Positions 40,857-64,000 of a stretch of 64,000 nucleotides of DNA are shown in pieces; the stretch's first letter is position 1, and each line of letters opens with the position of its first letter. This stretch comes from a virus: positions 20,088-84,087 of the IMG/VR virus record IMGVR_UViG_3300034101_004323, one strand, 5' to 3'. Both the position numbers and the translations under genes were made by a program. A model generated the notes under the pieces. It was not told the origin of the DNA, made no database searches, and saw only the letters and a list, made by a program, of their open reading frames with translations.

Positions 40857-43800
40857 TTATACTTGAAAAGGATTAATTAGTGGAGATCCTGCTATTTGAT
40901 TTGCTGCTGCTAGTTCAGCAAACTTTTCTTGTATCACTGACATAGCAATATCTTGTAAATCCGGGGACAGCTTATTCAATGCGGCATCTCCATTAATTAT
41001 CACATTATGAGTATGTGTTACTGTTATAGTTATTTCCTGTGGTATTGCACTTAATCCGGCCAAAGTATCAGCTACGCTCTTAAGTCTGTTGGTAAATTCA
41101 CCAATCTTATTAAGAGTATCCGAGTCAATAGAAGATACACCATTTGATGGCGCTGCTGCCGTTTGACCGCTCATTGCTTGGACGGCATTCTGAAAAGCTA
41201 ATGTAATAGAACTACTAATTTGGCCAACTATATTACCCATATAGGAGGACAAATCAAACATTTTATTTCCACCAGTTACACCTCCTGCTGTTTCATAATA
41301 ATTTGGAGTTATTATTCCACCATTAGATAAATAATTAACAATGCCACCTCTTGTATAATATCCGTCATTAATAGCTTTTAGTACTGGTAGATGTTTTTGT
41401 GTTGCTTTACGATTAATAACAAATTCGCCAGGAGTTAACATGGCAGGAACAGTATCAGTTCCACGAGGTTGATAATTTACAAGAGTTCCATTCTTGGCAT
41501 ATACTGGCACTCGTCCCCCTGTTGCAAAGTTTTTAACACCAGAAAATACATTTCCAGCCCCTTCTTGATTTTGATCATTCTTTTTTTGTTGTTCTTCTTT
41601 TAGATTAGCTGATGCTCTTATTAGAGCTTCTACTTGATCAGCATGAAGAGTATCTCGTCCATTTTCTAAGTTTAAGTCTCTTTTATAAGCATGCGCAAAA
41701 CTATTCCAGTGAATTTTTCCATTATCGCTTGATATTGCTTTTAAAGAATCTACAAAATATTTATAACCATAACCCACATTATTCTCATTCCATGGAATGA
41801 CAGCATTCTTATCATCAGACTCTCCGGTTTTTAGTCCTGTATTAAGTAGTGTATCAAAAGCTCTAAAATAAAGCCAAATATCTTTTAATCTAGTTTCTTT
41901 TTCTTTTTTGAGATCGTCTGGTAAAAGATCCTCTCCGTATTCATTTTTTCCTCTAAAATAAAATTTTCGTAATTTATCAATAAGCTCACTTCTATCTTCA
42001 GAATTTGGAAAAATTCTTTGAGGATCTAAAGCAACTTCCATTAATCTATTCCAACTATCAGGAAGTGCTTGTTCTGCACTTTCTACTTTACCAGCTCCTT
42101 TGGTTCCAAAAGTATAAGAATCGCCCTTTAACTTATCGTCTTTGGTTTGTATGAATTTAGTACTAGTTCGTTTTGTCATATTTGACATTATTTGTCTATT
42201 TATTATTTTTTGTAATAAATCTTGACTAACATTCATTCTGTTCCAATATTTAATATAATCTTCACCCAAATCAGTTTTTCCCATTACAGCATTACTTATA
42301 ATCTTTGTTTTGTTTCGATCATCTGGATCAGCAACTACCCTTGTTTCAGGGAAGCTCTCATCAGACAAATTTACTCCAAGATCTTGTAAAGTTTGTGTGC
42401 TATTTGTATCTTTCAGATTATATATTTCAGCAAAAACTGCTCTCCAAGCATCTATCCTTTCTCTTTCATAATTTCCAGGAAGTAAAGATGTTGGTATTTT
42501 TGATCCTATATTAGCAGCAGCATTTCCAATATCAGCAACACTTGTCATTTCTTTACCTATTGAGGAACTCACTAGGGGTGGTACATCATCACCAAGTCTT
42601 GCTAACCTATAGAACTCTCTTGCTAAAGTTACTTTTTTAGCATCATCAATCTTGGCATATTCTCCTATACTAAAATCAGTTTTAGCATATGATAATGCTG
42701 TTTCATTCTTGATTTTTTCCATATTAGCTTCACGAGCTTTGAAAAATTCATCTAGATTCAAGTCTAATGTTTCGTTAGATATAAAAGATTCACTACCAAA
42801 TTTTGAATCATAAATAGGACTATATGGAATTCCATTACTAGCTGATAGATTCGGAATTTCGCGGTAGTCTGTGCCTCCTCCCAGTATGTAGTGGTCTACA
42901 TAGTCATCTAAACGAGATTCTGGCAAGCCTAATGTATTATCACTTATTCCAAGAAACGGATTAAAAGGTCTCATCTTCTCATCATTTCCTTGCGGTGGAA
43001 TTATTACATGCGGTTCCTTTACTCCTAATTCTTCAAAAGATTTTCCAAATCTTTTTTCATTTTCCAAATATAATCTACTCTTAGGATCATATTTGATATA
43101 ACTAAATTTGACACCATTCTTGTCATAGTTTCCTGGTGATCTTATTACTGGTTGTTGCACCATATCTGGTGATGTTACAGCTTCTCTGAAAATCTCATCA
43201 TAGTCATCCAAACTTAAATTAGCATCAGTCCATCTAAAATATTTAACAGTTCCATCTTTATTAATTCCAAGCATATCGGTTTTTTCTTCATCGCTGTACT
43301 GAAATTTTTGTTCTCCATCTTCTGCCTTCTTTGTGTTTAATGCTGCTAATTTAGCTTGATATTCTGTCCATCTGCCACTAATAGCTTCATTATAAGCTGT
43401 AATAGGGGCTAAAGGAGATCCAGCCATTGCTGAAGGTTCTATAACGGGCTTATCTAATTTTATAGATGCTACTGTTCCATTATATAAATTAACTAAATCG
43501 CTAACATTCTGTTTATTTCCTAAAGATTCTTTTGTTTCGCTCTCAAATTTCTCTGAAAGTAAAGCATCTTGATATCGTAATGCTGTCAATCTGATATTTT
43601 GGGCTAATTGTAGCGTTGCTATACTTTCCGTCTGATAATCTTGTATAACATTAGAAAAATTTGCCATTCCGTTTGGTGGCTCATGTTTAATCGTTTGTCC
43701 CTCGAAGTCGAACCTGCCACCTTCCATACCCTCTTTTCTTATAAAATTTTCTTTACCAGATACAATAGGAAAGTTCTTTTCTCTTCCAAAACCATCAGCT

Positions 43801-46800
43801 CTAAAACCAATAATATTACCAACAGGACTATTCTTTGCTTTTGCATAAAGATCGTCTCGTTGTTCCTTTCGGATAAAATAATAATAACTATTATCTTTTG
43901 AGGCTAATCCTTTAATTTCTGCTGATCCATCAGCATAAGAAGTAAAAGAAGGATTTAATGATGGTACCTTACTTGGTGTGTCTAATTTTACTTTAACTCC
44001 GTCAATAGTCGCTTCTCGACCACTTACTTCGCTCACTTCGGTTAAAGACTTAACAATCATATCCAAATTAGCTAAGACATCAGGTTTTTCTGTTTTTTTA
44101 ATTTTTCTGGTCTTTGGATCAACAGGATTAAAAATATGCTGATCAAATGTATTTTTTATTGGAATACCACCCCATCCCCAATTCCCAGAACTGTTATTAA
44201 CAGCTCCAAAAGCCACATTATCTTTTGTGTTTTGACCTAATTTTGCCTGTTGCTTTATACTATCATAACCCCATCCAAATACTGGCATAGTATTAAAAGT
44301 TGGAGAACCAGAATACATAAATTTGCCATCGGTTCCTTTTTTAGGAACCAAAATATCATTTCTAGGTACTGGTTCTGTAGCATAAAACGAACCTTGAAAG
44401 GTAGACCAATTTTCAGTTTTACTTTTTACAGTATCTTCTGATAATGGTTTGTCATCATTAATAATAGGATATTCTTTATTTGATTCTTTTTCAACAATTG
44501 ATGTTCTAGCAAATGATTGTCTAGCAGACTCTGCTGCATCTTTCGGAGCAAAACCTCCAGTAACAACATAACCTCCATCAGCATAATATTTAACTTTACC
44601 ACCATTACTATAATTTCCACTATTAATATTCTTTAATAATGGAAGATGTTTTTGCGTAGCACTTCTATTAACAACAAATTCTCCCGGTGTTAACATAGCA
44701 GGAACAGTATCTGTTCCTTTGGGCTGAAAATTTACCATTTGTCCAGCAGAAGCATAGATGATACCACCATTTGCTTTTCCTGGAGCCATAGCTGCCGGGT
44801 TCTTTTCAACAATAATTCTTAATTGTTTTATTTCGTTTGCGATATCTTTAAGTTGAGCATTTTCAAAAGTGAATGGAACGCTTCTCATTGCTGATACTAA
44901 TTTTGCTGCTGCTATTTCTGCTGTATTTTGGTTCATTAATCTAACAATATTACCTAATTCAGTATTGGCTAATGATTGTGCATCAACAGCTTTTTTGTAT
45001 GCAGTAATAGCTTCTTGCATCTCTGGATCACCTTCTGGATTTCTTAGAGATTGCAAAACATCAGCCATCATAGGATTAATTCCAACTCCGCTCTCTATTA
45101 ACATGCTCTCAAGAACATTGGCTTTCATACCATTCTGTTTTTCGCCTAAAAATGGTGCTATCATATTAAATGCATCTAAACTTTCTTTTCTTTGATCAGC
45201 ACTACTGCCAAAATTAATACCACCTTGCATATTATTATTTAATCTATCCATAGCTCTATTTAATTGACTAAGTTCTTGAGGACTACTGGTTACCAACCTC
45301 TCAGCCATATTTACGCCAGCTTGACGTTTTTGCTGTATCTCATTAATCTTGGACATAGCAATACTGGCCATCTCCGTATTATCAGCCATACTCTTTAACG
45401 CATCATAATTTTCTCTTAATGCAATATTCGTATTTCTTAAACGATCTTGCATCATCATGAATTCGTCTGTTCCAGCATATCCTCTTTGTCCAGCAGTATT
45501 ACTCATGCTTTGTTGAGTTGCTCTTTGAGTTTCTAATGTTCTAACATTCTGAGCAATGAGAGCAGGATTTGTTTGTCCTCCTGTTTGAGCTTTAACTCCG
45601 GCCAAAGAAGCATCAAGTTGTTGCCTTAATGAAATTTCTTTACCAAGAGCTTTGTCTAGCTCCATCTGTCCTCTTACTTGTATATCCGAAGCTCGTCTGA
45701 ATCGTGAATTAGCTTCAATTGAAGACTCTACCATTTGATTCATAGCATTTGAATAATCATTCAAATTATTTTGCCAATGTTCTAATGCTTTTATAGCAGC
45801 TTCTTGTGCTTTCCTTGTAGAATCCATAATATTTCCAAGTTGTGGAATTTTTTCCATTAAATCTCCAAAATCAATTTTTTCATCACGCTTTTGGCGAATT
45901 TGTCCTATGGCAGCATTGACTTCTTGACTTAATTTATTATTAATATCTTTTGGTAATTTAAGTTTAGTTAAAGCTTCTTCTATATTATTTTGAATTTTTA
46001 TACCAATTTTTTCATTACCAGCATTTGGATCTTCTTTAATTGTTTTATTAATAGTAGACATTATGGTATCTTGTAATGTGCCACCAGCTTGTAATAATCC
46101 TTTCATATCACCAGATTCTGATCCAAACATATTTGCTGCGTTTTGTGATGCTTCTGCTCTTTGTGTTTTATTATATGCATTTGGATTTTGTAACACATTA
46201 ATACTTTTGAGTGATACTTGACCAGCTTTAGCATTACCAGATAAAGCACTTGCTGATAATTCTGCTTGTTGACTTAAATTATTTAATTCAAAAACATTTC
46301 GACCAATAGCTTGTTCCATATTCTGGAACATTCTTGTTAAACTATTTTGCAAATGATTAGCAGATTTTGACAATTCCTCTAACTTCATTTGTTTTAGTGT
46401 TGTTGCTTGTATTTCTCGTGCTTTTCTTTCTCCCTGTATGGAAATAATAGATTCTTTTTTAGCATTTTTCTCTTCTTGTGTAAGACCTATAGAATTTTGT
46501 ATATTCAGTATTTGTTCTTGGACAGCAGCATCTGCCAAGGCTAAACTTCTTGTTAACTTGGTAAAATCTGGTGTTCCGGCCACATCTTTGATCTGAGTGC
46601 CTGATCTTATTTTTTCTTCAATAAGTTGAGAAGAAATCTGCGCTGTACCAGCATAGTCTTTTGCTGCTTCTACTGATTTTTTAGGAATCATTGTTGCAAA
46701 TAGTTTTTGCTGTTTCTCAGCAGCACCACCACCAAAAGTAGCAGAAAAATAATCACTCATCCCTTTTTCAAATAGTATATCTGATCTTTCTGATGATCCT

Positions 46801-49800
46801 TCTCCAGTATCGAACAAATTGGCAAAACCTCGACGAGCTCTGGATTTTTCTTTTTGTACCTGATCTGCCATTCCTGTAGACTTACCAATTTGTTGTTCTA
46901 CTACTCTTTGTTTAACTTCATTTTTCATGTCTTTCTTGAATTCTTCAAAAGCTTTTCCTGTTGTTTCTAAAGATGCTTCTAGATTTTTGGAAGCTAATGA
47001 AATTGCCATTTCTCTAGCAGCATTCTCAGCATCTATAAAAGCTTTTGTCATTCCAATAACTGCTGTTACAGCTGCGGCTGCTGGACCAGCAAAAGCGGCT
47101 ATGCCTCCCATTCCTTGTGTCATCTCACCAACCATTGATCCCATCATCAAACTGCTTCCAACTGTTGTTGCGGCTCCCTGAGTCAGGGTTTGATTATATG
47201 CTCCTGATGTTGTGGTTGGAGCTCCTCCGCTAAACATATCAGTTAGCATGGGAATCAGAAAACTTGCTGTCATTGCTCTGCCCATCATATTTCCACCACC
47301 TCCACCAGAGCCACCACCTCCACCGACTCCTCCAGAGCCACTACCATTTTTGCCGCCTCTAGCTGCTGCTAATATTTGATTAGTGCTCATACCAGCAGCA
47401 GCACCCAAGCCTACTCCTGCTGTTCTATTTGCTGCTTGTATTGCAGTTGCTTGTGCTCCTCCTTTTCCGTATCCTGCTGCTTGTAAAGTAGCTTTTTTAG
47501 CTGCTGCAACATCAGCTTTGGATTGACCGCTCATCGCTGCTGTATCAGCAGAACTAGTACCAAAAACCGAAACTCGACGAGTTGCTCTGCCAAATGCTCC
47601 TGTTCCTGTAGGTATATCTGATGTCATTCCTCTTATATCATCCATTGCTTGTCTAGCTTGAGTACCCTGTCTTCTTACTCCTAATAAAGTTTCAGCACCA
47701 CCTGTTCTATTTTTTCTATATGCTGTTGCTGAATCATCTAAGCTTTTTGCTGTTTTACGTGCCGCATCTCTTAGTGCTCCTAGTGGATCAGCTAATAAAT
47801 TTTGTCTAAAAGATCCTAAAGCTGTTGCAGCATCTCCTAATGTTTTTCCAAATCTTGCTTGATTTTGCTGTTTTCTTTCTGTATCAGCAACAGCCATTTG
47901 TGTTAATGTATTTCTTTTTAATCTGCTTCGTTCTCTTTCTCTCCTAGGATCAGAAGCTGAAAAACGACTATCAACATCTGCATCTATTTGACGCATTCTA
48001 GCTTGTCCTCTAACTGTTGATCTTTTTTCTCTCAATATTTGATATCCTTCTGGATTCCTAGCTAAATTTCTTCCTAATGTATTTACATTATAAAATCCTG
48101 TGCTTGATGCTGCATTATCAATCATACTTTGTGCATTTGCTCTTCTTGCTTCTTGTCTTCTTTTTTTTGCTTCTGATGATAATCTTCTTCTCTCAGCTTC
48201 TTCTCGTCTTCTTTGAGCTTCAGGGTCAATCTCGGCAGTAGCTAAAGGTTCCCATGAACCTCTTGCAAACTTCTGAACAACTCCGCCACTATGATACTTA
48301 GGCAACTTGTTTAATGCTGTAAACCCACCCTTATTAAGTTTGTCAAGATTATTATAACCTAGATCTTGGGCAGAATTTTTATTAATAACATATTCACCCT
48401 CTTTAGCCATAATGGGTATTTCGCCACCAGATGCTTTTTTAACTACCGAGCTTTTTTGTTTTATTTTATCCGGAGCTTTAAAATATGAACTTTGTAATGC
48501 CCAAGCATCAGCTCTTAAAGAAGCTTCTTCAGCAGATTCACCTGGACCACCGTGATATGGTGGCCATTCTGATTTTGGTCCCTTTAATCTAGGATCAAGT
48601 AAATTACTTGCTGTCCAATATTGTTTTGGTAGTGGAGTTTTAAATACGTCTTTACGAGTTAGAAAATAACGTTTCCATACCCCTTTAGCAGCAGGAGTAA
48701 CACTACCTCTATCTGATGTTAATCTTCCACCAGATTCTGCTACTGATTCCATAAGAGTATCATATAATCCACGAGGCGCAAATCCTTTGGTAGCATTAGC
48801 AAAACTAACAGCAAATAATTTTGGCCCTATCTTATTAGCTTTAACGGTCCCAAATCTTTCTTTCTCATATAATTTACCAGTAAATGCTGCTGTAACTTCT
48901 CCTTCTTCTGGTTTTCCATATAAACCAATTTTACCATATGCTCTTCCACCACCTCTTATTTTTCCTTTTTCTATAGCGTCTCGTCTTTTTTGTAGAAGAT
49001 CTAATTCCTCCATTTCTTGTTGTGTTTTATCTTTCTTATACATCAGAGAGACTAATCTTCCACTATCTGGTGCAGCATTTGCTAAACCTGTGTATCCGCC
49101 TTTTGCATGTTTTTTTAGTCTAGGTCTATATCCTTCTGCTCTTAAAGCTTTCTGTTCTGATGTTAAGCCTTCGTATTCTCCCATGCTTCCGCCACGACGT
49201 TCTACTGCGCTTTGTATTCTTTGTCTTTTTTCTTCTACTGCTTTATCTCTTCTTTCTTGTTCTGCATAGATCTTTTTTGATGGTAGTAATCCCAATTTCT
49301 TGCTTATGTCCCAATCTGGAAGAGCATAGTCTTTCCATCTATTGTCTAGTCTTTCCTCTAATTTAGCTGTTAATTGTTCTGGTGTCATACCTAGAATATT
49401 AGCTCGTGCAGCAATATCAGCCGGAGAGTATTTTCCTCTTACCCAATCACCCTCAGAATATCCGGACCTAGATTTTATAAAGTTTTTTATATTACTAACT
49501 ATTTTGCCTTTTGGTCCTGTTAATGTTCGTTTAGCGTCAACAGGTGTTCTGGCCAATAATGGATTATTAAACCAGTTTGTTGCTATTTTACTTCCTATAC
49601 CATAAGGAAAGTCTATACTACTATGCTTTTCGCTATCTTTACTCATTGCTGTCCAAATATTAGCAGCGGCCGGATCTTTCGATATGATTTGCCTTATTTC
49701 TTCTTCAAAAGCATTTCCTTGAGTATCTGCTATGCCTTTTCTGGTTGCTCTACCCATAGACGATTTAGTTTTTTTGTATAAAAATGATTTTATGCCAGAT

Positions 49801-52800
49801 AATTTAGAAGCAGCAGCAATATTATCTGGATCATCATCAACAAATACTCCTTTATCCTGTCCCAAAGCTTGGGCCATAACATTTGCTTTAGCTAGTCCTA
49901 TATCTGCTGCGGAAGTTCCTTTTGCCCCAACTCCGGTAAAATTACTTAATGGTATATTTAATCCTCTGCTATTAACCCAACTAGCAATAGATCCTACAGT
50001 GCTTTGAGGTCTTGCTGTTACAATATGTAATCTGGACAAAAATTTATTATAATCAGCAGGAGAAAATTTCTTTTTAAGTTGACTAGATAAACGCACAAGC
50101 CCTCTAAATAGAGCAGATGGTTTGGTTTTAGCCAATTCCATTTTCGCTCTAACTTTATCACTCAATCCTCTTGCAACAGATGCTTTTTCATAAAATTGAC
50201 TATACATACCAGCTTTGGATGTTTTATCATCCATTGTCGGGGTTTTACCTGTTTTTTTAAATATTTCTTTTTGTTTTTCTGTTATAGGATCAGTGTTAAA
50301 TGCTAGTGTTTTATCAAAATCAAAAAATGCTTTAAGACCAGATCCTCGTGGATCTAATAGCTTAATAATCTCATCAACATATGATTTTTGAACACCTTGC
50401 CCGACCATTTTTAGATATCCCTTAGTATATTTCTTAGCTCTTTGATCAGCAGTTGGTGCTGCCTCTACAGATGCTCTATTAGGATCCTTCTTATCCATCT
50501 GTGCTAAACGAGCTTCTCTTTCAATGTTGTTTTTATCTAATACTTGACCAAACACTCTAACCTTTTTAGATCCATCTAGTCCAGGAATGTCTATGTCTGT
50601 TGGCGGAAAACTAGATCCAAACATTCCTATAGCACCAAATAATGAGTCTGAAGAAATTGCATTATTTGTATCTTCATTATCTTTATTTCTTCTATCTTCT
50701 ACTATTTTATTCGCTTTAACTACTAGTGAACTTAATATTTTAGATTTTAATGTTGGATTTTTGCTATATGGTCCTAATAAGGTTCTTATATCATTAGCTG
50801 ACATACCAGTATTACCACTAATACTACCAGCAGATTTTAGTATCTCGGTAATATCAATTCCTAGCTGGTTAGGTAGTTGAGCAGATGGTATTTTTGATAC
50901 TTCGTCAAGAGTCCAATCATTCATTCTCACATTTGCTCTTCTTCCTCCTCTACCTTTTTTAACAAAAGATCCGGCCATTAATTTTTGAACATCTTCTGGC
51001 TTGGTTTTTTTCTTTGATCTTCTATAAAATAATGATCGTTGAGTTTTTTCTATATCTCTCTGTGATCTATAATCTTTATTTTTTAATAGTCCTGGAGTAT
51101 TATCTTCAAAAATAAGAAATCTTCCAATATTAATATTATTAGGATCTTTATTTAAAGTTATTGATCTTGTTTTATCTGCTACTACTTTTTCACTGGCAGA
51201 TCTTTCTGAAATAATAGATCCTGCTACTTTATCCAGCAAATCACGAGTTGATACCTGAGCATCTTTACTTTTTACCTCAACGGGTGTGTTTCCTCGTAAT
51301 CCATCGATTCTAGAAAATCTATTCCCTTTCTCTTGTTTATATTTTCCAAGTGTATCTAAAATTCTTTCAAAGGCTGTACCTCTAGCAGAACTACCTTTTG
51401 ATCCTGTTGCTCCTCTACTATTGATATAGTTTTCTGTCTCTACTGGATTCTTTTCTCTAGCTTTCTTAATATCCTGTTCAGTCAAATTTATGGGTACTCT
51501 GCGAATATTAGCTTCTATAGTATCTCTAGTATTAAACCTTAAAGGAGGACTTGCTCTTCTTTTAAGTGCCTTTTCGATACTTTCTCCCTCTTTCTTATCG
51601 TAAGTTGTTTCTACATTAGGAACATATGGTCTACTAGACTTAAGTACGGCTAATCCTCCTTTAGCAAACTTTTGTGTGCCCTTTCCACCCAAACCCAATG
51701 CTTCAGTTGCTTTTTTTCTAATAACAAAACTTCCTACTGGTAGTGTTGTATAAAAACTATCAGTATTACCTCTTCCAGGAACTATTCCAATCCCACCTCC
51801 GCGTGCTCTTTTTTGTCTATATCCATTTTTATCAGCATGATTCATTTTTCGTAATGTTGATGTTCCTATTCTAGCAGCATGTTCTGGATAAAAAACAGCT
51901 TCTCCTGGTGTTAGAGCAACAGGAACATTAGAAACGTCTCCTCCTCCTGCATACTTATTGATGAATCCTCCCTTTTTAGCTCCTTGAGCTCCATTAGTCC
52001 TGAATCCTCTTAAAAATCCAGAACCAAACTGCCTTACTCCACTAGCTCCTCTAAAAGCCATCATAATAGCAAGAACAGGAAGAACACCCTTAACACTATC
52101 AGCAACACTAATAAGAGCGCTAGCTAATCCTAATGCTCCTTTAGCTAATGCTTGAAAAGTATCGCTACCGCCAATCTCTCTGAATAAGGCTAAAAATTCT
52201 TCTCGTACTTTTGCTGCTTGATTTGCTAAAGAAGCTTGTGCTTTAGCAGCATCCATAGTTAAAGATCCTTGACCTTGTTGAGCAACTCTTAGTGCGTCTT
52301 GAGCAGTTGCGAACTGCTGAATAAGAGGAATAACCTTACCAATTTGTCGGAATCCGCCCAGTTCTTCTACTATCTCACTAAATTTTAAATCTCGCGGATC
52401 AATTTGATTTAATCCTTCGCTTAGTAACTGAACTGCTTTATATGCTCCGACGAATTTTCCTTCTGCATCTGTAAGATTTACGCCGAATTCTTTCAAGGCT
52501 TCAATAGTTCCGCCTCTTTGAATTCTGGTAAAAATAGTCCTTAAACCAGTAGCAATAGTTTCTGCACTTTCACGAGTTGTTGCTCTAACGCTAGTAAATA
52601 CTGCTATAAATTCATTCAAAGCATCCGTGCCTTCACTAACTCCTTTACTAGCAGAAGCAAACACACCACCGGTTCGTTGAATAGCAGCAATAATATCACT
52701 TGCTTCAACAGCAAATTTAGCAGATACTGCGTTAACAGCACCAAGAGATTTCTCTAAATCAATTGCACTAATACCAAACTGTCTCATTAATGCAATACTA

Positions 52801-53543
52801 CCTTCTACCGTTTGATTCATATTATCAAAAGATGGAGCAAGACTGCTTAATGCTAATGCTTTTAATGCTCTTTCAGTATCTCTTGCTGTTAAACCAGCTT
52901 GAGCTAATGTTAACGATACTTCAGTTAAATCTTTAGAACTAACACCCAATGATGTGGATAACTGAGTTATTGTATTAGATAATTGAGATAATCCTGATGC
53001 AGATTCTCCCGTAACCTGTTGTAATTTAACAAATTGTTTATCATAGTCTATAAATGCATCAATACCTTGTCTCATTGCATTAGTCAAGCCCATTATAGCT
53101 CCAGCAGACATACTAAAGGCAGCGAATCTTCTAACTGCTAATCCTGCTGTTCTACCAAACTCTACCATTTGGCCAGATGCTTCTCTTGTTTGTCTTCCTG
53201 CATTACCAATATTATCCGCAGCATTATTTGCTGCTGCTGCTGCATTGTTTAAGTTTCTATTTAGTCCAGCTGTGTTATTATTAATTGCTGCTATTGATGC
53301 TCCAAATTGTCTTATAGCATTTGCTGCATTAGTAGCATTATTAGTTGTTGTTGTTAAATTATTATTTAATGTTGTTAATGCAGTATTTAATACTGTAACA
53401 TTACGAGTGGTTGCAGGATTAATTCTTAGATTAACATCTCCAGTTATTGTTCCTAATTGTCTTCTAATATCAGAAACTATATTTCTAACATTAGATGGTC
53501 CTCTAAGATTAATCTGTGCAGTTAAATTAAATGCTGATGCCAT
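40857..53543 (-). CDS. Tail tape measure protein (4228 aa) with embedded enzyme-like domains
   Basis: N-terminal TP901-type core (LAQAG...TRESAETIATGLRTIFTRI), long Ala/Gln-rich helical tracts, repeated GTDTVPAMLTPGEFV motifs; downstream of the tube gene. Confidence 0.9.
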   Translation of the reverse strand: MASAFNLTAQINLRGPSNVRNIVSDIRRQLGTITGDVNLRINPATTRNVTVLNTALTTLNNNLTTTTNNATNAANAIRQFGASIAAINNNTAGLNRNLNNAAAAANNAADNIGNAGRQTREASGQMVEFGRTAGLAVRRFAAFSMSAGAIMGLTNAMRQGIDAFIDYDKQFVKLQQVTGESASGLSQLSNTITQLSTSLGVSSKDLTEVSLTLAQAGLTARDTERALKALALSSLAPSFDNMNQTVEGSIALMRQFGISAIDLEKSLGAVNAVSAKFAVEASDIIAAIQRTGGVFASASKGVSEGTDALNEFIAVFTSVRATTRESAETIATGLRTIFTRIQRGGTIEALKEFGVNLTDAEGKFVGAYKAVQLLSEGLNQIDPRDLKFSEIVEELGGFRQIGKVIPLIQQFATAQDALRVAQQGQGSLTMDAAKAQASLANQAAKVREEFLALFREIGGSDTFQALAKGALGLASALISVADSVKGVLPVLAIMMAFRGASGVRQFGSGFLRGFRTNGAQGAKKGGFINKYAGGGDVSNVPVALTPGEAVFYPEHAARIGTSTLRKMNHADKNGYRQKRARGGGIGIVPGRGNTDSFYTTLPVGSFVIRKKATEALGLGGKGTQKFAKGGLAVLKSSRPYVPNVETTYDKKEGESIEKALKRRASPPLRFNTRDTIEANIRRVPINLTEQDIKKAREKNPVETENYINSRGATGSKGSSARGTAFERILDTLGKYKQEKGNRFSRIDGLRGNTPVEVKSKDAQVSTRDLLDKVAGSIISERSASEKVVADKTRSITLNKDPNNINIGRFLIFEDNTPGLLKNKDYRSQRDIEKTQRSLFYRRSKKKTKPEDVQKLMAGSFVKKGRGGRRANVRMNDWTLDEVSKIPSAQLPNQLGIDITEILKSAGSISGNTGMSANDIRTLLGPYSKNPTLKSKILSSLVVKANKIVEDRRNKDNEDTNNAISSDSLFGAIGMFGSSFPPTDIDIPGLDGSKKVRVFGQVLDKNNIEREARLAQMDKKDPNRASVEAAPTADQRAKKYTKGYLKMVGQGVQKSYVDEIIKLLDPRGSGLKAFFDFDKTLAFNTDPITEKQKEIFKKTGKTPTMDDKTSKAGMYSQFYEKASVARGLSDKVRAKMELAKTKPSALFRGLVRLSSQLKKKFSPADYNKFLSRLHIVTARPQSTVGSIASWVNSRGLNIPLSNFTGVGAKGTSAADIGLAKANVMAQALGQDKGVFVDDDPDNIAAASKLSGIKSFLYKKTKSSMGRATRKGIADTQGNAFEEEIRQIISKDPAAANIWTAMSKDSEKHSSIDFPYGIGSKIATNWFNNPLLARTPVDAKRTLTGPKGKIVSNIKNFIKSRSGYSEGDWVRGKYSPADIAARANILGMTPEQLTAKLEERLDNRWKDYALPDWDISKKLGLLPSKKIYAEQERRDKAVEEKRQRIQSAVERRGGSMGEYEGLTSEQKALRAEGYRPRLKKHAKGGYTGLANAAPDSGRLVSLMYKKDKTQQEMEELDLLQKRRDAIEKGKIRGGGRAYGKIGLYGKPEEGEVTAAFTGKLYEKERFGTVKANKIGPKLFAVSFANATKGFAPRGLYDTLMESVAESGGRLTSDRGSVTPAAKGVWKRYFLTRKDVFKTPLPKQYWTASNLLDPRLKGPKSEWPPYHGGPGESAEEASLRADAWALQSSYFKAPDKIKQKSSVVKKASGGEIPIMAKEGEYVINKNSAQDLGYNNLDKLNKGGFTALNKLPKYHSGGVVQKFARGSWEPLATAEIDPEAQRRREEAERRRLSSEAKKRRQEARRANAQSMIDNAASSTGFYNVNTLGRNLARNPEGYQILREKRSTVRGQARMRQIDADVDSRFSASDPRRERERSRLKRNTLTQMAVADTERKQQNQARFGKTLGDAATALGSFRQNLLADPLGALRDAARKTAKSLDDSATAYRKNRTGGAETLLGVRRQGTQARQAMDDIRGMTSDIPTGTGAFGRATRRVSVFGTSSADTAAMSGQSKADVAAAKKATLQAAGYGKGGAQATAIQAANRTAGVGLGAAAGMSTNQILAAARGGKNGSGSGGVGGGGGSGGGGGNMMGRAMTASFLIPMLTDMFSGGAPTTTSGAYNQTLTQGAATTVGSSLMMGSMVGEMTQGMGGIAAFAGPAAAAVTAVIGMTKAFIDAENAAREMAISLASKNLEASLETTGKAFEEFKKDMKNEVKQRVVEQQIGKSTGMADQVQKEKSRARRGFANLFDTGEGSSERSDILFEKGMSDYFSATFGGGAAEKQQKLFATMIPKKSVEAAKDYAGTAQISSQLIEEKIRSGTQIKDVAGTPDFTKLTRSLALADAAVQEQILNIQNSIGLTQEEKNAKKESIISIQGERKAREIQATTLKQMKLEELSKSANHLQNSLTRMFQNMEQAIGRNVFELNNLSQQAELSASALSGNAKAGQVSLKSINVLQNPNAYNKTQRAEASQNAANMFGSESGDMKGLLQAGGTLQDTIMSTINKTIKEDPNAGNEKIGIKIQNNIEEALTKLKLPKDINNKLSQEVNAAIGQIRQKRDEKIDFGDLMEKIPQLGNIMDSTRKAQEAAIKALEHWQNNLNDYSNAMNQMVESSIEANSRFRRASDIQVRGQMELDKALGKEISLRQQLDASLAGVKAQTGGQTNPALIAQNVRTLETQRATQQSMSNTAGQRGYAGTDEFMMMQDRLRNTNIALRENYDALKSMADNTEMASIAMSKINEIQQKRQAGVNMAERLVTSSPQELSQLNRAMDRLNNNMQGGINFGSSADQRKESLDAFNMIAPFLGEKQNGMKANVLESMLIESGVGINPMMADVLQSLRNPEGDPEMQEAITAYKKAVDAQSLANTELGNIVRLMNQNTAEIAAAKLVSAMRSVPFTFENAQLKDIANEIKQLRIIVEKNPAAMAPGKANGGIIYASAGQMVNFQPKGTDTVPAMLTPGEFVVNRSATQKHLPLLKNINSGNYSNGGKVKYYADGGYVVTGGFAPKDAAESARQSFARTSIVEKESNKEYPIINDDKPLSEDTVKSKTENWSTFQGSFYATEPVPRNDILVPKKGTDGKFMYSGSPTFNTMPVFGWGYDSIKQQAKLGQNTKDNVAFGAVNNSSGNWGWGGIPIKNTFDQHIFNPVDPKTRKIKKTEKPDVLANLDMIVKSLTEVSEVSGREATIDGVKVKLDTPSKVPSLNPSFTSYADGSAEIKGLASKDNSYYYFIRKEQRDDLYAKAKNSPVGNIIGFRADGFGREKNFPIVSGKENFIRKEGMEGGRFDFEGQTIKHEPPNGMANFSNVIQDYQTESIATLQLAQNIRLTALRYQDALLSEKFESETKESLGNKQNVSDLVNLYNGTVASIKLDKPVIEPSAMAGSPLAPITAYNEAISGRWTEYQAKLAALNTKKAEDGEQKFQYSDEEKTDMLGINKDGTVKYFRWTDANLSLDDYDEIFREAVTSPDMVQQPVIRSPGNYDKNGVKFSYIKYDPKSRLYLENEKRFGKSFEELGVKEPHVIIPPQGNDEKMRPFNPFLGISDNTLGLPESRLDDYVDHYILGGGTDYREIPNLSASNGIPYSPIYDSKFGSESFISNETLDLNLDEFFKAREANMEKIKNETALSYAKTDFSIGEYAKIDDAKKVTLAREFYRLARLGDDVPPLVSSSIGKEMTSVADIGNAAANIGSKIPTSLLPGNYERERIDAWRAVFAEIYNLKDTNSTQTLQDLGVNLSDESFPETRVVADPDDRNKTKIISNAVMGKTDLGEDYIKYWNRMNVSQDLLQKIINRQIMSNMTKRTSTKFIQTKDDKLKGDSYTFGTKGAGKVESAEQALPDSWNRLMEVALDPQRIFPNSEDRSELIDKLRKFYFRGKNEYGEDLLPDDLKKEKETRLKDIWLYFRAFDTLLNTGLKTGESDDKNAVIPWNENNVGYGYKYFVDSLKAISSDNGKIHWNSFAHAYKRDLNLENGRDTLHADQVEALIRASANLKEEQQKKNDQNQEGAGNVFSGVKNFATGGRVPVYAKNGTLVNYQPRGTDTVPAMLTPGEFVINRKATQKHLPVLKAINDGYYTRGGIVNYLSNGGIITPNYYETAGGVTGGNKMFDLSSYMGNIVGQISSSITLAFQNAVQAMSGQTAAAPSNGVSSIDSDTLNKIGEFTNRLKSVADTLAGLSAIPQEITITVTHTHNVIINGDAALNKLSPDLQDIAMSVIQEKFAELAAANQIAGSPLINPFQV

Positions 53544-53626: not shown

Positions 53627-54493
53627 TTAACTATTAGATTCTGGTTCTGGGACTTCCTTTGTTTCTTCTGGCTGTGGTGTTGGTTCATTTTTTTCTTCGT
53701 CCAGAATAATTGGATTTCCGTTATCATCCAAAAATGGTTGTTGATCAACAACATATTCTCCATCTTTGTCTACTCTATTACCAAACTTATCAATAAAGTT
53801 ACCACTTTCATCAATAAACCTACCACCTTCATCAACAAGTCTTCCTTCACTATCTATTAATCTTCCCTTCTTATCGATAAAGCGTAGTTTATTATCAATA
53901 AATTTAAACTTCTTCAAAAATTTATTTTCTGGCAAATTACTTTCATAATCATTATCCAAACCATACAGCATATTGGCCAAGTTTTGAGCACCTTGAATAG
54001 CAACTTGATCAGTTGATCTATTAAGATAATCTTCTAGACTTGAAAAATATGCTTGTTTAGTATCATTATACACCACACAAACACTGACTAAATAATTAAA
54101 TCTAGCATTATCAGCTTGACCTTCTGCACTATGATTATCTAAACTTGTTCTAACACTAATAAGATCTCGTATCTCATCTCTTAGCTGTTTCATTTTAACG
54201 GCTAAATCCTTAGCTTCATTGAGACTAAAACCTCCTTTCGCCAATTTCTTTTCTCCTTCAAGCAGTTCTTTTTGTAAACTTGTGAATTTAGCCTGTTTTT
54301 CATCATTCCATAATCCTTGATCTTCTAATAGATCATCAAGTTTTGCTCTGACAACGCTTTTGCTTTTAATAGCATCTGTAAAAGCCTGATTATAAACCTT
54401 TTGACCTTCTCTTTGATCACTCAAAGATGGACTGCGTACTAAAAATTCTTTTTCATTATTATCGATAGTAACTTTAAATGTTTTTGTTTTCAT
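53627..54493 (-). CDS. Putative tail assembly chaperone with 7-aa repeats
   Basis: Immediately precedes the TMP; coiled-coil region; repeats IDKKGRL-IDSEGRL-VDEGGRF-IDESGNF-IDKFGNR-VDKDGEY. Confidence 0.5.
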   Translation of the reverse strand: MKTKTFKVTIDNNEKEFLVRSPSLSDQREGQKVYNQAFTDAIKSKSVVRAKLDDLLEDQGLWNDEKQAKFTSLQKELLEGEKKLAKGGFSLNEAKDLAVKMKQLRDEIRDLISVRTSLDNHSAEGQADNARFNYLVSVCVVYNDTKQAYFSSLEDYLNRSTDQVAIQGAQNLANMLYGLDNDYESNLPENKFLKKFKFIDNKLRFIDKKGRLIDSEGRLVDEGGRFIDESGNFIDKFGNRVDKDGEYVVDQQPFLDDNGNPIILDEEKNEPTPQPEETKEVPEPESNS

Positions 54494-54792
54494 GATCTAT
54501 TTTCTCCTTTATTTTCATTATTAAAACGTATTTCATAATTATATTTATGTGTATCTTTTTCGTTAATAAAATATTTATACATATTTTCAACAGTTAGTCT
54601 TGTTTGATGATTACCAAAATTCAATATATCATGTCTTGCCTTTTGCCATAGGTCATGATAGTAATCTCCAAGCTCATCCTCTTTTTCCCATAATTTCCCG
54701 AATATCTCCTCAAATCTTGCTAAAGCACCAATCATAATGGTGGTGCATTTTTTTTCAGTATCCTTTATTAGTTTATTTTGTTTTTGATTCAT
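54490..54792 (-). CDS. Hypothetical protein
   Basis: 100-aa coupled ORF that carries the AAGGAG SD of the next gene. Confidence 0.7.
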   Translation of the reverse strand: MNQKQNKLIKDTEKKCTTIMIGALARFEEIFGKLWEKEDELGDYYHDLWQKARHDILNFGNHQTRLTVENMYKYFINEKDTHKYNYEIRFNNENKGENRS

Positions 54793-59500: not shown

Positions 59501-60583
59501 TTAAGCCTCATATGGTGGCGGCTCATATGTTACGACCATATGCCATCCAGATATGCTACCAGATGACCCCAGATCTTCATCTTTAATTATTAAGGACCAG
59601 TCGCCAGGATAACTATAACCAACGAGTCCTGTGATAGATATTGTAAGATCTTCGTAATTAATATTATCTAAACTAAATCTATATGATGGTCTTTTGTCTA
59701 AAATATTTAAATAATAATCGTCGTTATTTCTATTATTTAGATATATTCCGGATATTGCTTTATTAGAAAATGCAAAACTTAGCCCATTTAAAGTATTATA
59801 ATTATTAATTTTATTATGGCTAGATAATAGTATTTTTTGCCCAGATGGAGGAACAAGGACCATTGAAAGATCCTGAGGATTATTATGAGTTAATTTGTCT
59901 ATAGAAATTTCTATATTAGTTATTATGCCAGTATCTAGAACAGAAATAGTTCCGCTACTAACTCCCATATCTGGTATGCTAAAACCTGATCCAGAATAAA
60001 GTTTCGCAAACATGTCCATTCCTTGACATAAATATCCACAAAAATCCTCTTGTATAATATTACATGGTGAACTGATCGTTGGGGTTGGAGTTGGAGTTGG
60101 ATTATCTCCTGTTGGAGCAATGCCACCACCACCTGTTCCTGTTGATGCTATAGAAAATCCATTACTATCTTCACATAAAATATCACCACAACTTGCACAA
60201 CTTCTACTGGTACTTCCAGAAATACAATCAGAAAAATTATTTTTTATAATCTCAATACGACCTGTGGATATCCTAATATTTTGTGAGTTCTGTCCTGCTA
60301 AACCAATATCAAGATCATAAATAGCAGAATCAAACGTAAAATCTTTAGTGCTTGATGCTGGTAAATTCCATATAATGTATCCTGATGTATTAGATGTTAA
60401 ACTATAATTACCGCATCCGGCTGAACTACTATATAACCTTACTGTATTATTATTATCTTTTAGCCTTAATCTAATACAATAATTACTTACATCTATAGGA
60501 TTGCTGTTGTTGTCCAGATATTGAAATGTTATCTGGAAATCTGATCCTTGTTCTATATAAAAATTGTATGTTGCTGCTGCCAT
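59501..60583 (-). CDS. Virion decoration protein: N-terminal beta-sandwich + PT linker + proprotein-convertase P-domain
   Basis: YNFYIEQGSDF...PIDVSNY...AIYDLDI...GRIEII; PTPTPTPT; ITNIEISI..LTH...DLSMVLVPPSG...GDWSLIIKD...GSISGW. Confidence 0.7.
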   Translation of the reverse strand: MAAATYNFYIEQGSDFQITFQYLDNNSNPIDVSNYCIRLRLKDNNNTVRLYSSSAGCGNYSLTSNTSGYIIWNLPASSTKDFTFDSAIYDLDIGLAGQNSQNIRISTGRIEIIKNNFSDCISGSTSRSCASCGDILCEDSNGFSIASTGTGGGGIAPTGDNPTPTPTPTISSPCNIIQEDFCGYLCQGMDMFAKLYSGSGFSIPDMGVSSGTISVLDTGIITNIEISIDKLTHNNPQDLSMVLVPPSGQKILLSSHNKINNYNTLNGLSFAFSNKAISGIYLNNRNNDDYYLNILDKRPSYRFSLDNINYEDLTISITGLVGYSYPGDWSLIIKDEDLGSSGSISGWHMVVTYEPPPYEA

Positions 60584-61497: not shown

Positions 61498-62219
61498 AAT
61501 AGTTCTCCTTGTTGAATAGTTAATTGACCATGTTCTTTTACGCTATTAAAGAGTATGATATCTTTTTCATAGTATTTTTCTATTTGTGACTTTTGTTCTT
61601 CTGATAGTATTGGTTTGGTTCTTTTTGCCTTGTTAGCTACTAAGGATTTATTCTCATTTATTCCTATAAACTTCAAACAGTCTCTTAAATTATCAGGAAA
61701 GTTAAAGACATAAGTTTCTCTTTGAATATATTTATGCTGATGAAAGAAATGCACATCGTCTCTTAAGTATCCAAATCGTTTAAAATCTCTTACTGGTAAT
61801 CCTTGATCTATTCTATTTTGTCTAGTTTCTAGCTTTTTAGCATTTATTTTTTCTAAATTAGCTAGTTGGTTCGATACTTCAATATCTTCTCTTGTTCGGA
61901 GAAAAGCGCTATCATTTACTAAAGAATCTATTGCTTTATCTATATCTTCAAATTTAATTGCTATTTGCTGACAAGCAGTAATAAATCGATCAACTGGATT
62001 TCGTACCATTAATATTATAGGTTTATCTGGAGTTGTTGATCCGGGACACATCCAGTGCCATTGTTTTTGGCTTTCATCAATACCATTAGGAAATCTTGCA
62101 TAAACTATTTTTTGATGTTCTTTTGGATAAAACTCTTTAATGATCAATCGAGCCATAGTTGATGAGCCAACTTTAGCATTAAGAGCAACGCTATAATTAG
62201 GAGTAGTATAATAATACAT
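61488..62219 (-). CDS. Sulfotransferase-family protein (Sulfotransfer_2-like)
   Basis: 5'-PSB-like NAKVGSSTM, 3'-PB-like VRNPVDRFITA, HFFHQ, terminal IEKYYEKDIILF. Confidence 0.7.
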   Translation of the reverse strand: MYYYTTPNYSVALNAKVGSSTMARLIIKEFYPKEHQKIVYARFPNGIDESQKQWHWMCPGSTTPDKPIILMVRNPVDRFITACQQIAIKFEDIDKAIDSLVNDSAFLRTREDIEVSNQLANLEKINAKKLETRQNRIDQGLPVRDFKRFGYLRDDVHFFHQHKYIQRETYVFNFPDNLRDCLKFIGINENKSLVANKAKRTKPILSEEQKSQIEKYYEKDIILFNSVKEHGQLTIQQGELLCH

Positions 62220-64000
62220 TATGGATAAGTGGTTAGTTGTGAAACTGGCGGGGTAAAGTTTGAAGAATAAATTGCTGCCCCTCTAATTATTCTAAGATCA
62301 TCAATGTATGCATTAGTTGTCTGACTCAATCCATAAGTGGCACCTATTTTTATTTTATAAGGCCCAGCTGGAGTTGGTTGAGTAGCAGAACTTACAAGAG
62401 TACCATTTATAAAAAGTTTTTTAACGCTATTTTTAGAAACACAAGCAACATGATACCATTGAGTAGCTCCAACTGTTCCGCCAGCAGTAGCATCAGTTTG
62501 ACCATCATTAAATCGTATCTCATTGCTAGTATATAAGTAAATATTTACTCCAACCGTTGAGCTTCCATTAGAAAGATTAATCACTCCTTCATAAGCAGCA
62601 GTTGCTGTTGGTCGATATATCCAAAACTCAATAGTATAATCAACTTGTGATAAATCTGGAATTACAAATGATGAATTACCAATATTTCCGCCATTAAACG
62701 ATAATGATGCGCTTCCATATTGTTTAATTGATGTGGAAAAAGCTGGACTTCCTCCTAATCCTGATACTGATATATTTTGTGACGATGAGTCTGTGTAGTT
62801 ACTATTTAAATTTAATAATAATGTTGTATATGGTGCTATCGACCCATAAACCGTGTATCCTTTGGTTGTTGCTATGCTAGGATCATCAGAATCACCACCA
62901 GTATTGTCACTAACATCTATGGTTCCGTCTCCATTCAATAAGTCTGTATAAATTTGATTTAGTGATGATGAATCTAAAAGATTTGAACTAACATCTAAAC
63001 GGTACTCAACTCCGGGAATTCCAGGGATATAAGTCCATCTACTATAATAGTAGGGGTAACCAACATAACCATATTGACTATATCCAGCAGTTGCTGGTCC
63101 AACAATAAATCTTGAATAAAAAGGTCGTACTGAAGTTAAATTATTATTTGAAACGTCAACATTGTAAAAATATCCGTCTAAAGATCCGTTTGATGTTGAC
63201 GGATAAATTGTTATACTTTGATTTCCTCCAATTGAAGCTTTGCTAAAATTAGTTCCACTAACATAAGTACTTTTTGTTCCGTCCCACCAGTTAACAGTAT
63301 AATAGCCACTTGAGGTGGTTATATTACCAGTTATATTTCCACTAGACTTTGTGCTAACCATAACTATATGATTATATAATTTTGGTGGTATAGTAGAATT
63401 TGACGATAATAAAACAGGTATAGGACTAAAATAATCAACTTGATAAAGTGCTATTCCTTTTGTTATTCTAAATTCATCAATATAGCCTGAGAATTGCTCA
63501 GTTGAGCCTGTTGCAACATTACCTATTGTAATCGATCCACTAATACTATTTGGAAAAGATACAGATTCTAATAAACTGCCATTTAGATATAATTTTAAGT
63601 TTCCATTAAATCTAACTAATGATATATGCACCCATTCATTACGAGGACAAAGAATGCCATGGTAGCCCTGCAAGACATAATCTGATACACTAGTATCATA
63701 TGTAAACATACCTCTACTATTATCATGCAACCATAAGGTATGAGAACCAATTTTAAATATTCCTGGTTGGGCCGCCGTATTGCTCTCGGTATTGAACACC
63801 CAGAGTTCTACTGTAAAGTCTTCATTATAAGCAATATTAATAGTATTGGTGGTTATAACATAACCATACTCTGGAATATATGCGCTAGTATTTCCTACCT
63901 TACTTTGAGTGGTACTAATTACTGCTCCATTATATGAGGTTAAAGTCATTGCTTGAGAACTACTATCAGTAAAAGTAGTACTATTATTACTTCCATCAAA
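62219..64000 (-). CDS. LamG/concanavalin-A-like repeat virion protein, 5' end beyond the window
   Basis: Two LamG domains (DFTVELW...WVHISLVR...GYIDEFRITKG; DYTIEFW...WYHVACV...YIDDLRIIRG). The frame is open to 64000 (FDGSNNSTTFTDSS), so ATG 63949 is probably internal. Confidence 0.85.
   Translation of the reverse strand, partial: FDGSNNSTTFTDSSSQAMTLTSYNGAVISTTQSKVGNTSAYIPEYGYVITTNTINIAYNEDFTVELWVFNTESNTAAQPGIFKIGSHTLWLHDNSRGMFTYDTSVSDYVLQGYHGILCPRNEWVHISLVRFNGNLKLYLNGSLLESVSFPNSISGSITIGNVATGSTEQFSGYIDEFRITKGIALYQVDYFSPIPVLLSSNSTIPPKLYNHIVMVSTKSSGNITGNITTSSGYYTVNWWDGTKSTYVSGTNFSKASIGGNQSITIYPSTSNGSLDGYFYNVDVSNNNLTSVRPFYSRFIVGPATAGYSQYGYVGYPYYYSRWTYIPGIPGVEYRLDVSSNLLDSSSLNQIYTDLLNGDGTIDVSDNTGGDSDDPSIATTKGYTVYGSIAPYTTLLLNLNSNYTDSSSQNISVSGLGGSPAFSTSIKQYGSASLSFNGGNIGNSSFVIPDLSQVDYTIEFWIYRPTATAAYEGVINLSNGSSTVGVNIYLYTSNEIRFNDGQTDATAGGTVGATQWYHVACVSKNSVKKLFINGTLVSSATQPTPAGPYKIKIGATYGLSQTTNAYIDDLRIIRGAAIYSSNFTPPVSQLTTYP

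Follow-up and report, generated by a model that had tools for sequence, protein, structure and literature searches.

An uncultured lake phage has a giant tape measure protein with exchangeable, enzyme-like modules that may be injected into the host

The stretch of DNA analysed here (hereafter the window) comprises 64,000 nucleotides of an uncultured virus, positions 20,088 to 84,087 of the IMG/VR record IMGVR_UViG_3300034101_004323, and encodes on its minus strand a giant tail tape measure protein (TMP), P0001. Behind the TMP core of this chain lies a block of six modules, three of which resemble a PD-(D/E)XK nuclease, a HAD-superfamily phosphatase and a GNAT-fold acyltransferase. Relatives of P0001 hold the modules in differing orders and numbers, and single modules have been exchanged by recombination. 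The tail probably carries these module enzymes ready-made into the host, and the reading that we favour, with a probability of roughly 0.55, is that of a TMP whose inserted modules are injected, early-acting enzymes directed against host defences or used for host takeover. An earlier note on the window, made from the letters of the sequence, had described the chain as a polyprotein with injected enzyme cargo; that P0001 is in fact cleaved into individual enzymes is no more than possible.

The gene is a single open reading frame (ORF), free of stops over 12.7 kb, and the 48300-52000 stretch to which the earlier note had drawn attention lies entirely within it. In the numbering used throughout, the first base of residue r is 53543-3(r-1). 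The block that follows the core was split into its six units according to conservation and to the pattern of sharing among relatives, and it is bounded by copies of a repeated motif, here called the joint, which were located by motif and hidden Markov model (HMM) searches. AlphaFold2 (AF2) models and VIA structure comparisons were used for two of the units. The features of this part of the chain are the following:

40857..53543, minus strand: giant tail TMP P0001, single ORF of 4,228 codons (open reading frame)
51999..53543, minus strand: TMP core, TP901-type, residues 1-515 (Pfam and PHROG matches)
51600..51971, minus strand: joint copies 1 and 2, residues ~525-648 (motif/HMM)
50994..51566, minus strand: unit i, PD-(D/E)XK nuclease-like domain, residues 660-850 (AF2, VIA, conservation)
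50424..50993, minus strand: 'mid' module, residues 851-1040 (conserved in 25 of 164 relatives; no family match)
49758..50423, minus strand: HAD-superfamily phosphatase-like domain, residues 1041-1262 (invariant motifs, Atlas, sub-threshold Pfam match)
49344..49757, minus strand: unit iii, small conserved module, residues 1263-1400 (alignment A9)
48945..49343, minus strand: 'post' module, charged, residues 1401-1533 (conserved in 10 relatives)
48444..48944, minus strand: unit iv, GNAT-fold acyl-CoA N-acyltransferase-like domain, residues 1534-1700 (AF2, VIA)
48258..48443, minus strand: joint copy 3, residues 1701-1762 (motif/HMM)

P0001 is a TMP of the TP901/PF10145 type, from an uncultured phage of lake water. 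A Pfam scan of the whole protein matched PF10145 (PhageMin_Tail) at residues 190-384 with 78.7 bits against a cut-off of 33.2 (E 7.3e-22), five PHROG families of TMPs, including phrog_4211, phrog_167 and phrog_28, match the chain, and a hydrophobicity scan placed a hydrophobic segment at residues 463-497 of the core. Moreover, the last joint is followed by 148 conserved residues, the arrangement found at the C-terminus of lambda gpH. PHROGs gave TMP families and nothing else, and Pfam searches, which covered the full-length protein, six of its segments and ten small relatives, returned just the TMP core and a sub-threshold HAD match. The claim that globular, enzyme-type domains sit inside a genuine TMP is thus upheld by the PF10145 core, by the folds described below and by the signature residues that they keep.

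Among these domains, the HAD-like one (unit ii of the earlier note) is recognizable from its motifs. The strings FFDFDKTL, HIVTARP and VFVDDDPDNI, from which it had been proposed, occur once each at residues 1073-1242 (49818-50327), where they had been placed, and HAD motifs I to IV follow one another in order as DxDxT at residues 1075-1079, T1176, K1219 and the DD pair at 1236-1237. In 17 diverse sequences DxD, T, (S/T)AR, K and DD are invariant or nearly so, and in a larger set the counts are D 20/20, D 19/19, T 19/19, T/S 51/51, K 53/53 and DD 51/52. Atlas, a protein-language-model search, gave the unit a score of 0.94, with 195 of 256 features shared with viral DUF2608/HAD-IIIB clusters. 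These motifs and this search, along with the sub-threshold Pfam match weighed further below, sustain the HAD label, and membership of the superfamily is very likely on this evidence. The DxDxT form points to a phosphatase or phosphotransferase rather than a dehalogenase.

In the case of unit iv, the GNAT label of the earlier note is borne out by structure prediction. Both of the strings on which it had been based are present once each, at residues 1584-1626 (48666-48794), as indicated there, and the AF2 model of the unit (A6, 28 sequences) reached a pLDDT of 92.1 and a pTM of 0.86, with a topology of four antiparallel strands, helix, strand, helix and strand. In a wide VIA comparison all 50 of the 50 best matches had the acyl-CoA N-acyltransferase fold (Z 5.5-7.0), including AcrVA5 and the toxin AtaT, and a second list was headed by human GCN5 (Z 7.3) and contained 202 chains with Z of at least 5. 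The best structural matches are GCN5/PCAF, YjdJ (5i0c), At1g77540 (1xmt) and AcrVA5 (6iuf), with Z from 7.3 to 6.0. A G-x-G/A loop (residues 1587-1589), kept in 75-77 of 77 copies, lies between strand 43-51 and helix 58-70 of the model, i.e., between strand 4 and helix 3, the place of the CoA-binding motif A in GNATs, to which it corresponds in part, and about ten polar residues are near-invariant. Two usual GNAT features are absent: in the model no alpha1-alpha2 helices follow strand 1, and the Q/R position of motif A (Q/R-x-x-G-x-G/A) is occupied by A or S. As these helices are missing, and as Pfam models of the GNAT clan match neither the unit iv segment nor ten stand-alone relatives, unit iv is regarded here as a GNAT-fold domain of an undescribed family. 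Stand-alone unit iv proteins of ~175 aa do exist, and four uncharacterised phage proteins in BFVD match the unit at E <= 1e-3. One such homologue of 174 aa is encoded amid small same-strand ORFs on a 259-kb IMG/VR contig (L045, 4857-5381, plus strand), in surroundings that by their layout look like an early-gene region.

Unit i had been read as PD-(D/E)XK-like from the strings GTAFERILD, RIDG and PVEVKSK, each of which is found once, at residues 722-760 (51264-51380), in agreement with that reading. Its key residues are E726, D747, E756 and K758. The AF2 model (A8, 20 sequences; pLDDT 83.3, pTM 0.78) has an alpha-beta-beta-beta-alpha-beta core, in which E726 (E67 of the model) stands in helix 56-72, D747 (D88) just ahead of strand 89-91, and E756 and K758 (E97 and K99) in strand 94-99. 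Two helices come next, and then a long strand, 144-155. In this predicted structure, both the core and the placement of the residues are the canonical ones of the PD-(D/E)XK fold. The residues are also conserved among relatives (E 21/21, D 22/22, E 23/23 and K 21/23, with R in the other two). In two VIA lists about 44 of the 50 best matches were nucleases of the restriction-endonuclease fold, including the VRR-NUC domain of FAN1, Hjc, FokI, many type II enzymes, Cas4 and cap-snatching endonucleases, and the best Z scores were 4.5 for CdiA-CT of Escherichia coli TA271 (4g6u), 4.3 for FAN1 VRR-NUC and 3.6 for Hjc. These three have in common with unit i the alpha-beta-beta-beta-alpha-beta core with E...D...ExK, but differ in that identities are 14-15%, Z is low and there is no relation at the sequence level. 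The label is therefore backed by the topology, by where the motif residues sit and by which proteins fill the match lists, with weak Z scores, and we consider a PD-(D/E)XK fold likely from the model. On sequence grounds unit i is a family of its own, so far almost exclusively found inside giant TMPs.

The second PD-(D/E)XK-like unit of the earlier note, unit iii, is a less clear case. Its strings QGNAFEEEI, SIDFP and PVDAKRT occur once each at residues 1275-1340 (49524-49721), again as reported, and the family pattern is G..E / IDFP.GLG / PT(D/E)xKRT followed by (F/Y)AxGG, with D and K kept in 33/33 sequences each, D/E in 32/33 and E in 22/31. A comparison of unit iii with unit i by hhalign gave a probability of 3.8%, and the nearest named cluster in Atlas, P22 gp16 at 0.83, is at chance level. 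From its motifs, a PD-(D/E)XK fold for this unit can be proposed with some doubt, as a minority option. The idea of units i and iii as detectable paralogues was rejected, since hhalign among the six units showed no relation. The mid module usually precedes the HAD unit or unit iii. Profiles of the HAD unit, unit iii and unit iv compared with PDB chain sequences were uninformative, and so were sequence and profile searches of PDB chains with segments 640-1368 and 1369-1900.

Among relatives the block of modules is shuffled. A word-indexed search found 20 giant relatives of 2.4-6.7 thousand residues, and an exhaustive HMMER run with residues 640-1800 as the query brought up 177 matches at E <= 1e-3, nearly all with 1.3-7.1 thousand residues. 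The N-terminal TMP core is common to 113 of the 132 relatives of at least 1,200 residues, the remainder of which look N-terminally truncated; there are hence at least 113 giant tape measures with modules, the longest of 7,122 aa. Among 164 proteins unit iv occurs in 74, the HAD unit in 52, unit iii in 32, mid in 25, unit i in 21 and post in 10; for the units singled out in the earlier note, recurrence in tens of relatives with the key residues retained is far above chance. Unit iv precedes the HAD unit in P0025 and P0043, mid and unit iii stand without the HAD unit in P0010, P0011 and P0030, and P0091 has three tandem copies of unit iv, two or three such copies per chain being seen in P0091, P0118 and P0163. 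At the DNA level, 44 loci on IMG/VR contigs (22-244 kb), plus a single contig from a metagenome, hold the units in open frames of 1,738-3,494 codons, many of them cut by the ends of the loci. Searches of the GenBank phage collection with the region (blastn) and with the HAD unit, unit iv and a stand-alone unit iv protein (tblastn) gave no match, searches for related loci with a single segment, unit i or P0150 found none, and a search for shorter homologues returned two fragments and nothing else.

Comparison of close relatives showed the exchange itself. P0001 shares 96-100% identity with P0002, P0003 and P0004 across most of residues 1-600, falls to 26-48% over residues 651-850 (unit i) and returns to ~98% from residue 851, with further drops starting at about residues 1751 and 3001; all three drops begin just after a joint. 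For unit i itself the identity to these three proteins is 30-48%. The unit i of P0001 is in turn 97% identical to that of P0023 and 69% identical to that of P0006. Close relatives thus exchange whole modules. The cassettes swapped between conserved delimiters that the earlier note had suggested looking for in orthologous TMPs are indeed there, both in the order of the units and in the identity drops behind the joints. The segment 50994-51740 (minus strand, residues ~601-850), with its flanks of 96-100% identity, can be described as a swapped or fast-evolving nuclease-like allele.

The joint is a motif of ~65 residues, (F/Y)AxGG ... VPAMLTPGEFV(I/V)N ... LN.G, present five times in P0001, near residues 547, 604, 1716, 2954 and 4039. 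An HMM built from 324 copies of relatives matches lambda gpH at residues 724-788 (E 3.6e-12), so that the joint is an ordinary TMP element that has been multiplied in P0001. Lambda gpH is cleaved in a glycine-rich region near its C-terminus (PMC12617516), and the joints may likewise be places of chain cleavage. Beyond the first slot of modules, the distal part of the chain is arranged as follows:

46944..47546, minus strand: Gly/Ala-rich stretch with a hydrophobic segment, residues 2144-2170 (hydrophobicity)
44787..46943, minus strand: low-aromatic region, presumed ruler part, residues ~2200-2920 (composition; conserved among relatives)
44493..44786, minus strand: joint copy 4, residues 2920-3017 (motif/HMM, direct repeat)
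41544..44492, minus strand: second variable block, aromatic-rich, residues 3018-4000 (composition, identity; no family match)
41304..41537, minus strand: joint copy 5, residues 4003-4080 (motif/HMM, direct repeat)
40860..41303, minus strand: conserved C-terminal end, residues 4081-4228 (after the last joint, as in lambda gpH)

The low-aromatic region is likely helical, judging from its composition. The second variable block, partly swapped as well (~30-40% identity to P0002 over residues 3001-3600), may hold further cargo or tip-associated domains. Joint copies 4 and 5 include a direct repeat of 164 nt (44572-44735 and 41317-41480) with 75% DNA identity; the two repeats are separated by 3,255 nt, and intragenic recombination could take place between them.

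A further trait of the whole chain is the absence of cysteine. P0001 has none in 4,228 residues, where ~51 would be expected, and the 16 other ORFs of the window have 1.2% (147 of 12,198 residues). Across 108 giant relatives there are 25 cysteines in 411,536 residues, and 95 of these proteins have none. Not one cysteine occurs where units i, mid, HAD, iii and post are embedded in a chain, some stand-alone unit iv proteins contain one to three, and lambda gpH has none. The modules are thus under the same constraint as the ruler, which fits, and does not prove, a common travel route.

Putting these observations together, the first slot consists, in this order, of a PD-(D/E)XK nuclease-like domain, mid, a HAD phosphatase-like domain, unit iii, the charged post module and a GNAT-fold acyltransferase-like domain. 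A TMP is expected to fill the tail tube and to leave it before the DNA, and because of this the modules would travel with it into the envelope and the cytoplasm. There, already synthesised, they would be active as enzymes from the very start of infection, with anti-defence or host takeover as their most plausible role; candidate activities are the cutting of nucleic acid, the dephosphorylation of nucleotides or nucleic-acid ends, and the acylation of a host target by means of host acyl-CoA. The GNAT fold requires acyl-CoA, a cytoplasmic cofactor. This need, the enzyme carried by gp96 of phage P23-45 (see below), the lack of cysteine and the arms-race-like variation of unit i are the bases on which delivery is proposed. 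A more elaborate scheme, in which the joints are processing sites and an injected polyprotein frees nuclease, phosphatase and acyltransferase ahead of the DNA, is re-armed by recombination at the joints and has a hypervariable nuclease module (37% identity in proteins that are otherwise 98-100% identical) evolving in a contest with an inhibitor or a defence target of the host, is conceivable and rather doubtful. CdiA-CT toxins are locked in a comparable arms race with their immunity proteins.

Several points weigh against delivery of active enzymes. The presence of the modules in virions and their arrival in the host are proposed by analogy. The structural scores are modest: Z for unit i never reaches 5 and no single match is convincing by the calibration of VIA, Z for unit iv is at most 7.3, moderate in absolute terms, and Foldseek searches of the PDB gave best E values of 0.17 for unit i and 0.06 for unit iv, the latter not significant in a list made up mostly of GNAT and MYST enzymes. 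AlphaFold and Foldseek, which the earlier note had recommended, gave globular enzyme-type folds for both units on the one hand and no PDB match below E 0.06 on the other. The PF12710 match of the HAD unit, with 15.8 bits, remains below the cut-off of 27 (E 0.019 over 24,736 models), and none of the other 16 members scanned by Pfam gave a HAD match. An E value of 0.019 is meaningful for a hypothesis stated beforehand, though sub-threshold, and the unit is filed here as HAD-like and not as a member of PF12710 because the curated cut-off is not reached. Folded domains of 20 kDa on three to six chains may also overfill a tail lumen of ~4 nm; if the lumen is too narrow, the modules would need unfolded or staggered storage. 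Finally, the enzyme of P23-45 precedes the TMP part of its chain, whereas the modules of P0001 follow the PF10145 core.

Other explanations share part of this evidence. The modules could be packaged with the TMP and yet spare host targets, working at the envelope or on the phage DNA as it is ejected, for instance by trimming or protecting the end of the entering DNA or by remodelling the channel. Most of the enzymes known from TMPs are muralytic, with the cell wall as their site of action, and the processed form of lambda gpH, gpH*, forms a trans-envelope conduit (PMC12617516); a nuclease and a phosphatase near the DNA exit could, in such a setting, process DNA ends. By Pfam, however, the block has no muralytic domain, a GNAT fold would need its cytoplasmic cofactor, and the hypervariability of unit i resembles an arms race with a host factor more than housekeeping, so that we regard an envelope or own-DNA role as unlikely. 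Improbable too is an expression polyprotein, from which the modules would be cut off at the joints during assembly, to act or be discarded in the producing cell and to be absent from the virion. It would agree with joints that flank the module blocks and with lambda, where gpH is cut in the glycine-rich region adjoining its own joint and perhaps half of the gpHC copies are not retained (PMC12617516). Yet the modules avoid cysteine as the ruler does, unlike the ordinary cytoplasmic phage enzymes of the window, the existence of stand-alone unit iv genes makes a TMP fusion unneeded merely for expression, and the fused enzyme of P23-45 is found in virions.

Catalytically dead spacers or plugs that lengthen or stabilise the TMP would account for modules that Pfam models do not recognise and for the modest structural Z scores, but signature residues of units i, HAD and iv are near-invariant in sequences only 25-45% identical overall, which makes this explanation very improbable. 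The last one takes the long ORF for a chimera of the assembly or for adjacent genes fused together; the sequence does come from a metagenome assembly, and the source record is a fragment of 84,087 bp with an estimated completeness of ~59%. The stretch is nevertheless present in lake-water metagenomes from many studies, and four independent lake-water runs contain identical contig pieces that span unit boundaries, e.g., 49728-51245, so that the ORF is not an assembly artefact; with the same architecture on more than 100 independent contigs, the probability left to a chimera is negligible. Injected, early-acting enzymes remain for us the best account of the modules of P0001.

With regard to the surroundings of the gene, small unannotatable ORFs lie upstream of the TMP and giant fibre-like proteins downstream. 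Directly upstream are two ORFs of 100 and 288 aa that overlap by 4 nt (53627-54792, minus strand) and have no family match; tail assembly chaperones are usually encoded at this place. Further upstream, an ORF of the structural region (59501-60583, minus strand) combines a proprotein-convertase P-domain with an LtfC-like sandwich, and another (62219-63949, minus strand) has two Laminin_G_3 (concanavalin-like) domains and similarity to the PHROG 'baseplate wedge'. The 84-kb record yielded no tail sheath family, but being a fragment it is uninformative on morphology, and no RNA holder was found among the sequencing runs listed for the stretch. At positions 46956 and 53220 of the window, contigs of three independent lake runs diverge with identical loose-end sequence at both points, which suggests recombination sites common to co-occurring strains.

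How phages survive the first seconds after DNA entry, before their own genes are expressed, is an open problem, to which proteins packaged in the capsid and a single RNA polymerase fused to a tape measure are the answers known. If delivery by P0001 and its relatives is true, the tail would become a protein-injection device with exchangeable payloads across a clade of abundant lake phages, and it would be explained why tape measure genes of 12-21 kb far exceed what tail length needs. Moreover, at least three undescribed enzyme families are defined that can be directly tested, and the multiplied joints offer a comparative handle on the joint region of lambda gpH, whose cleavage has stayed unexplained for 50 years. 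A search of the literature for strings of the joint motif, and for cargo of this type in giant TMPs, gave nothing beyond the papers cited here.

The closest known parallel is gp96 of Thermus phage P23-45 (also P74-26, G20c and TSP4), a giant TMP chain of 5,002 aa with an N-terminal virion RNA polymerase that is on phage DNA 5 min after infection (Chaban et al. 2024, PMC10770324). This polymerase, present in virions as well as on phage DNA, shows that enzymes acting in the cytoplasm can be delivered by a TMP (PMC10770324), and gp96 is the only published case of a TMP-borne cytoplasmic enzyme found in our literature searches. In P23-45 there is a single two-barrel polymerase at the N-terminus, whereas P0001 has several unrelated small modules in swappable slots bounded by joints; its own N-terminus is the TMP core, Pfam detected no polymerase-like region, and no sequence relation was found between the two proteins. 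In its many domains, P0001 also resembles the polyvalent proteins of phages and conjugative elements, giant chains of conflict-type enzyme domains, GNATs included, for which delivery together with the DNA was proposed (Iyer et al. 2017, PMC5512222). P0001 shows the same solo versions of domains elsewhere, repeated accretion and variable architectures. The carriers of polyvalent proteins, however, are capsid- or portal-associated or delivered by type IV secretion systems, while the scaffold of P0001 is a tail ruler with a joint of its own, and tape measure proteins are not mentioned in that survey (PMC5512222).

As for ordinary tape measures, lambda gpH and T5 pb2 follow the same N-terminal-to-C-terminal TMP logic, and in lambda the ejection of gpH* has to precede that of the genome (PMC12617516). 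gpH has 853 residues, one joint, no cysteine and no known enzymatic activity, compared with five joints and ~2,000 residues of modules in P0001. Enzymes embedded in TMPs are already represented by the peptidoglycan-hydrolase domains of mycobacteriophage TM4 and other TMPs and of T5 pb2C, which are used at entry (cited in PMC12617516); those of the TM4 type act on the cell wall, whereas the predicted folds of the P0001 modules point to chemistry on nucleic acids, phosphoesters and acyl-CoA. In size, the 9-kb TMP genes of Gordonia phages have been called among the largest known (PMC4919401), and the gene described here reaches 12.7 kb, with relatives of ~21 kb.

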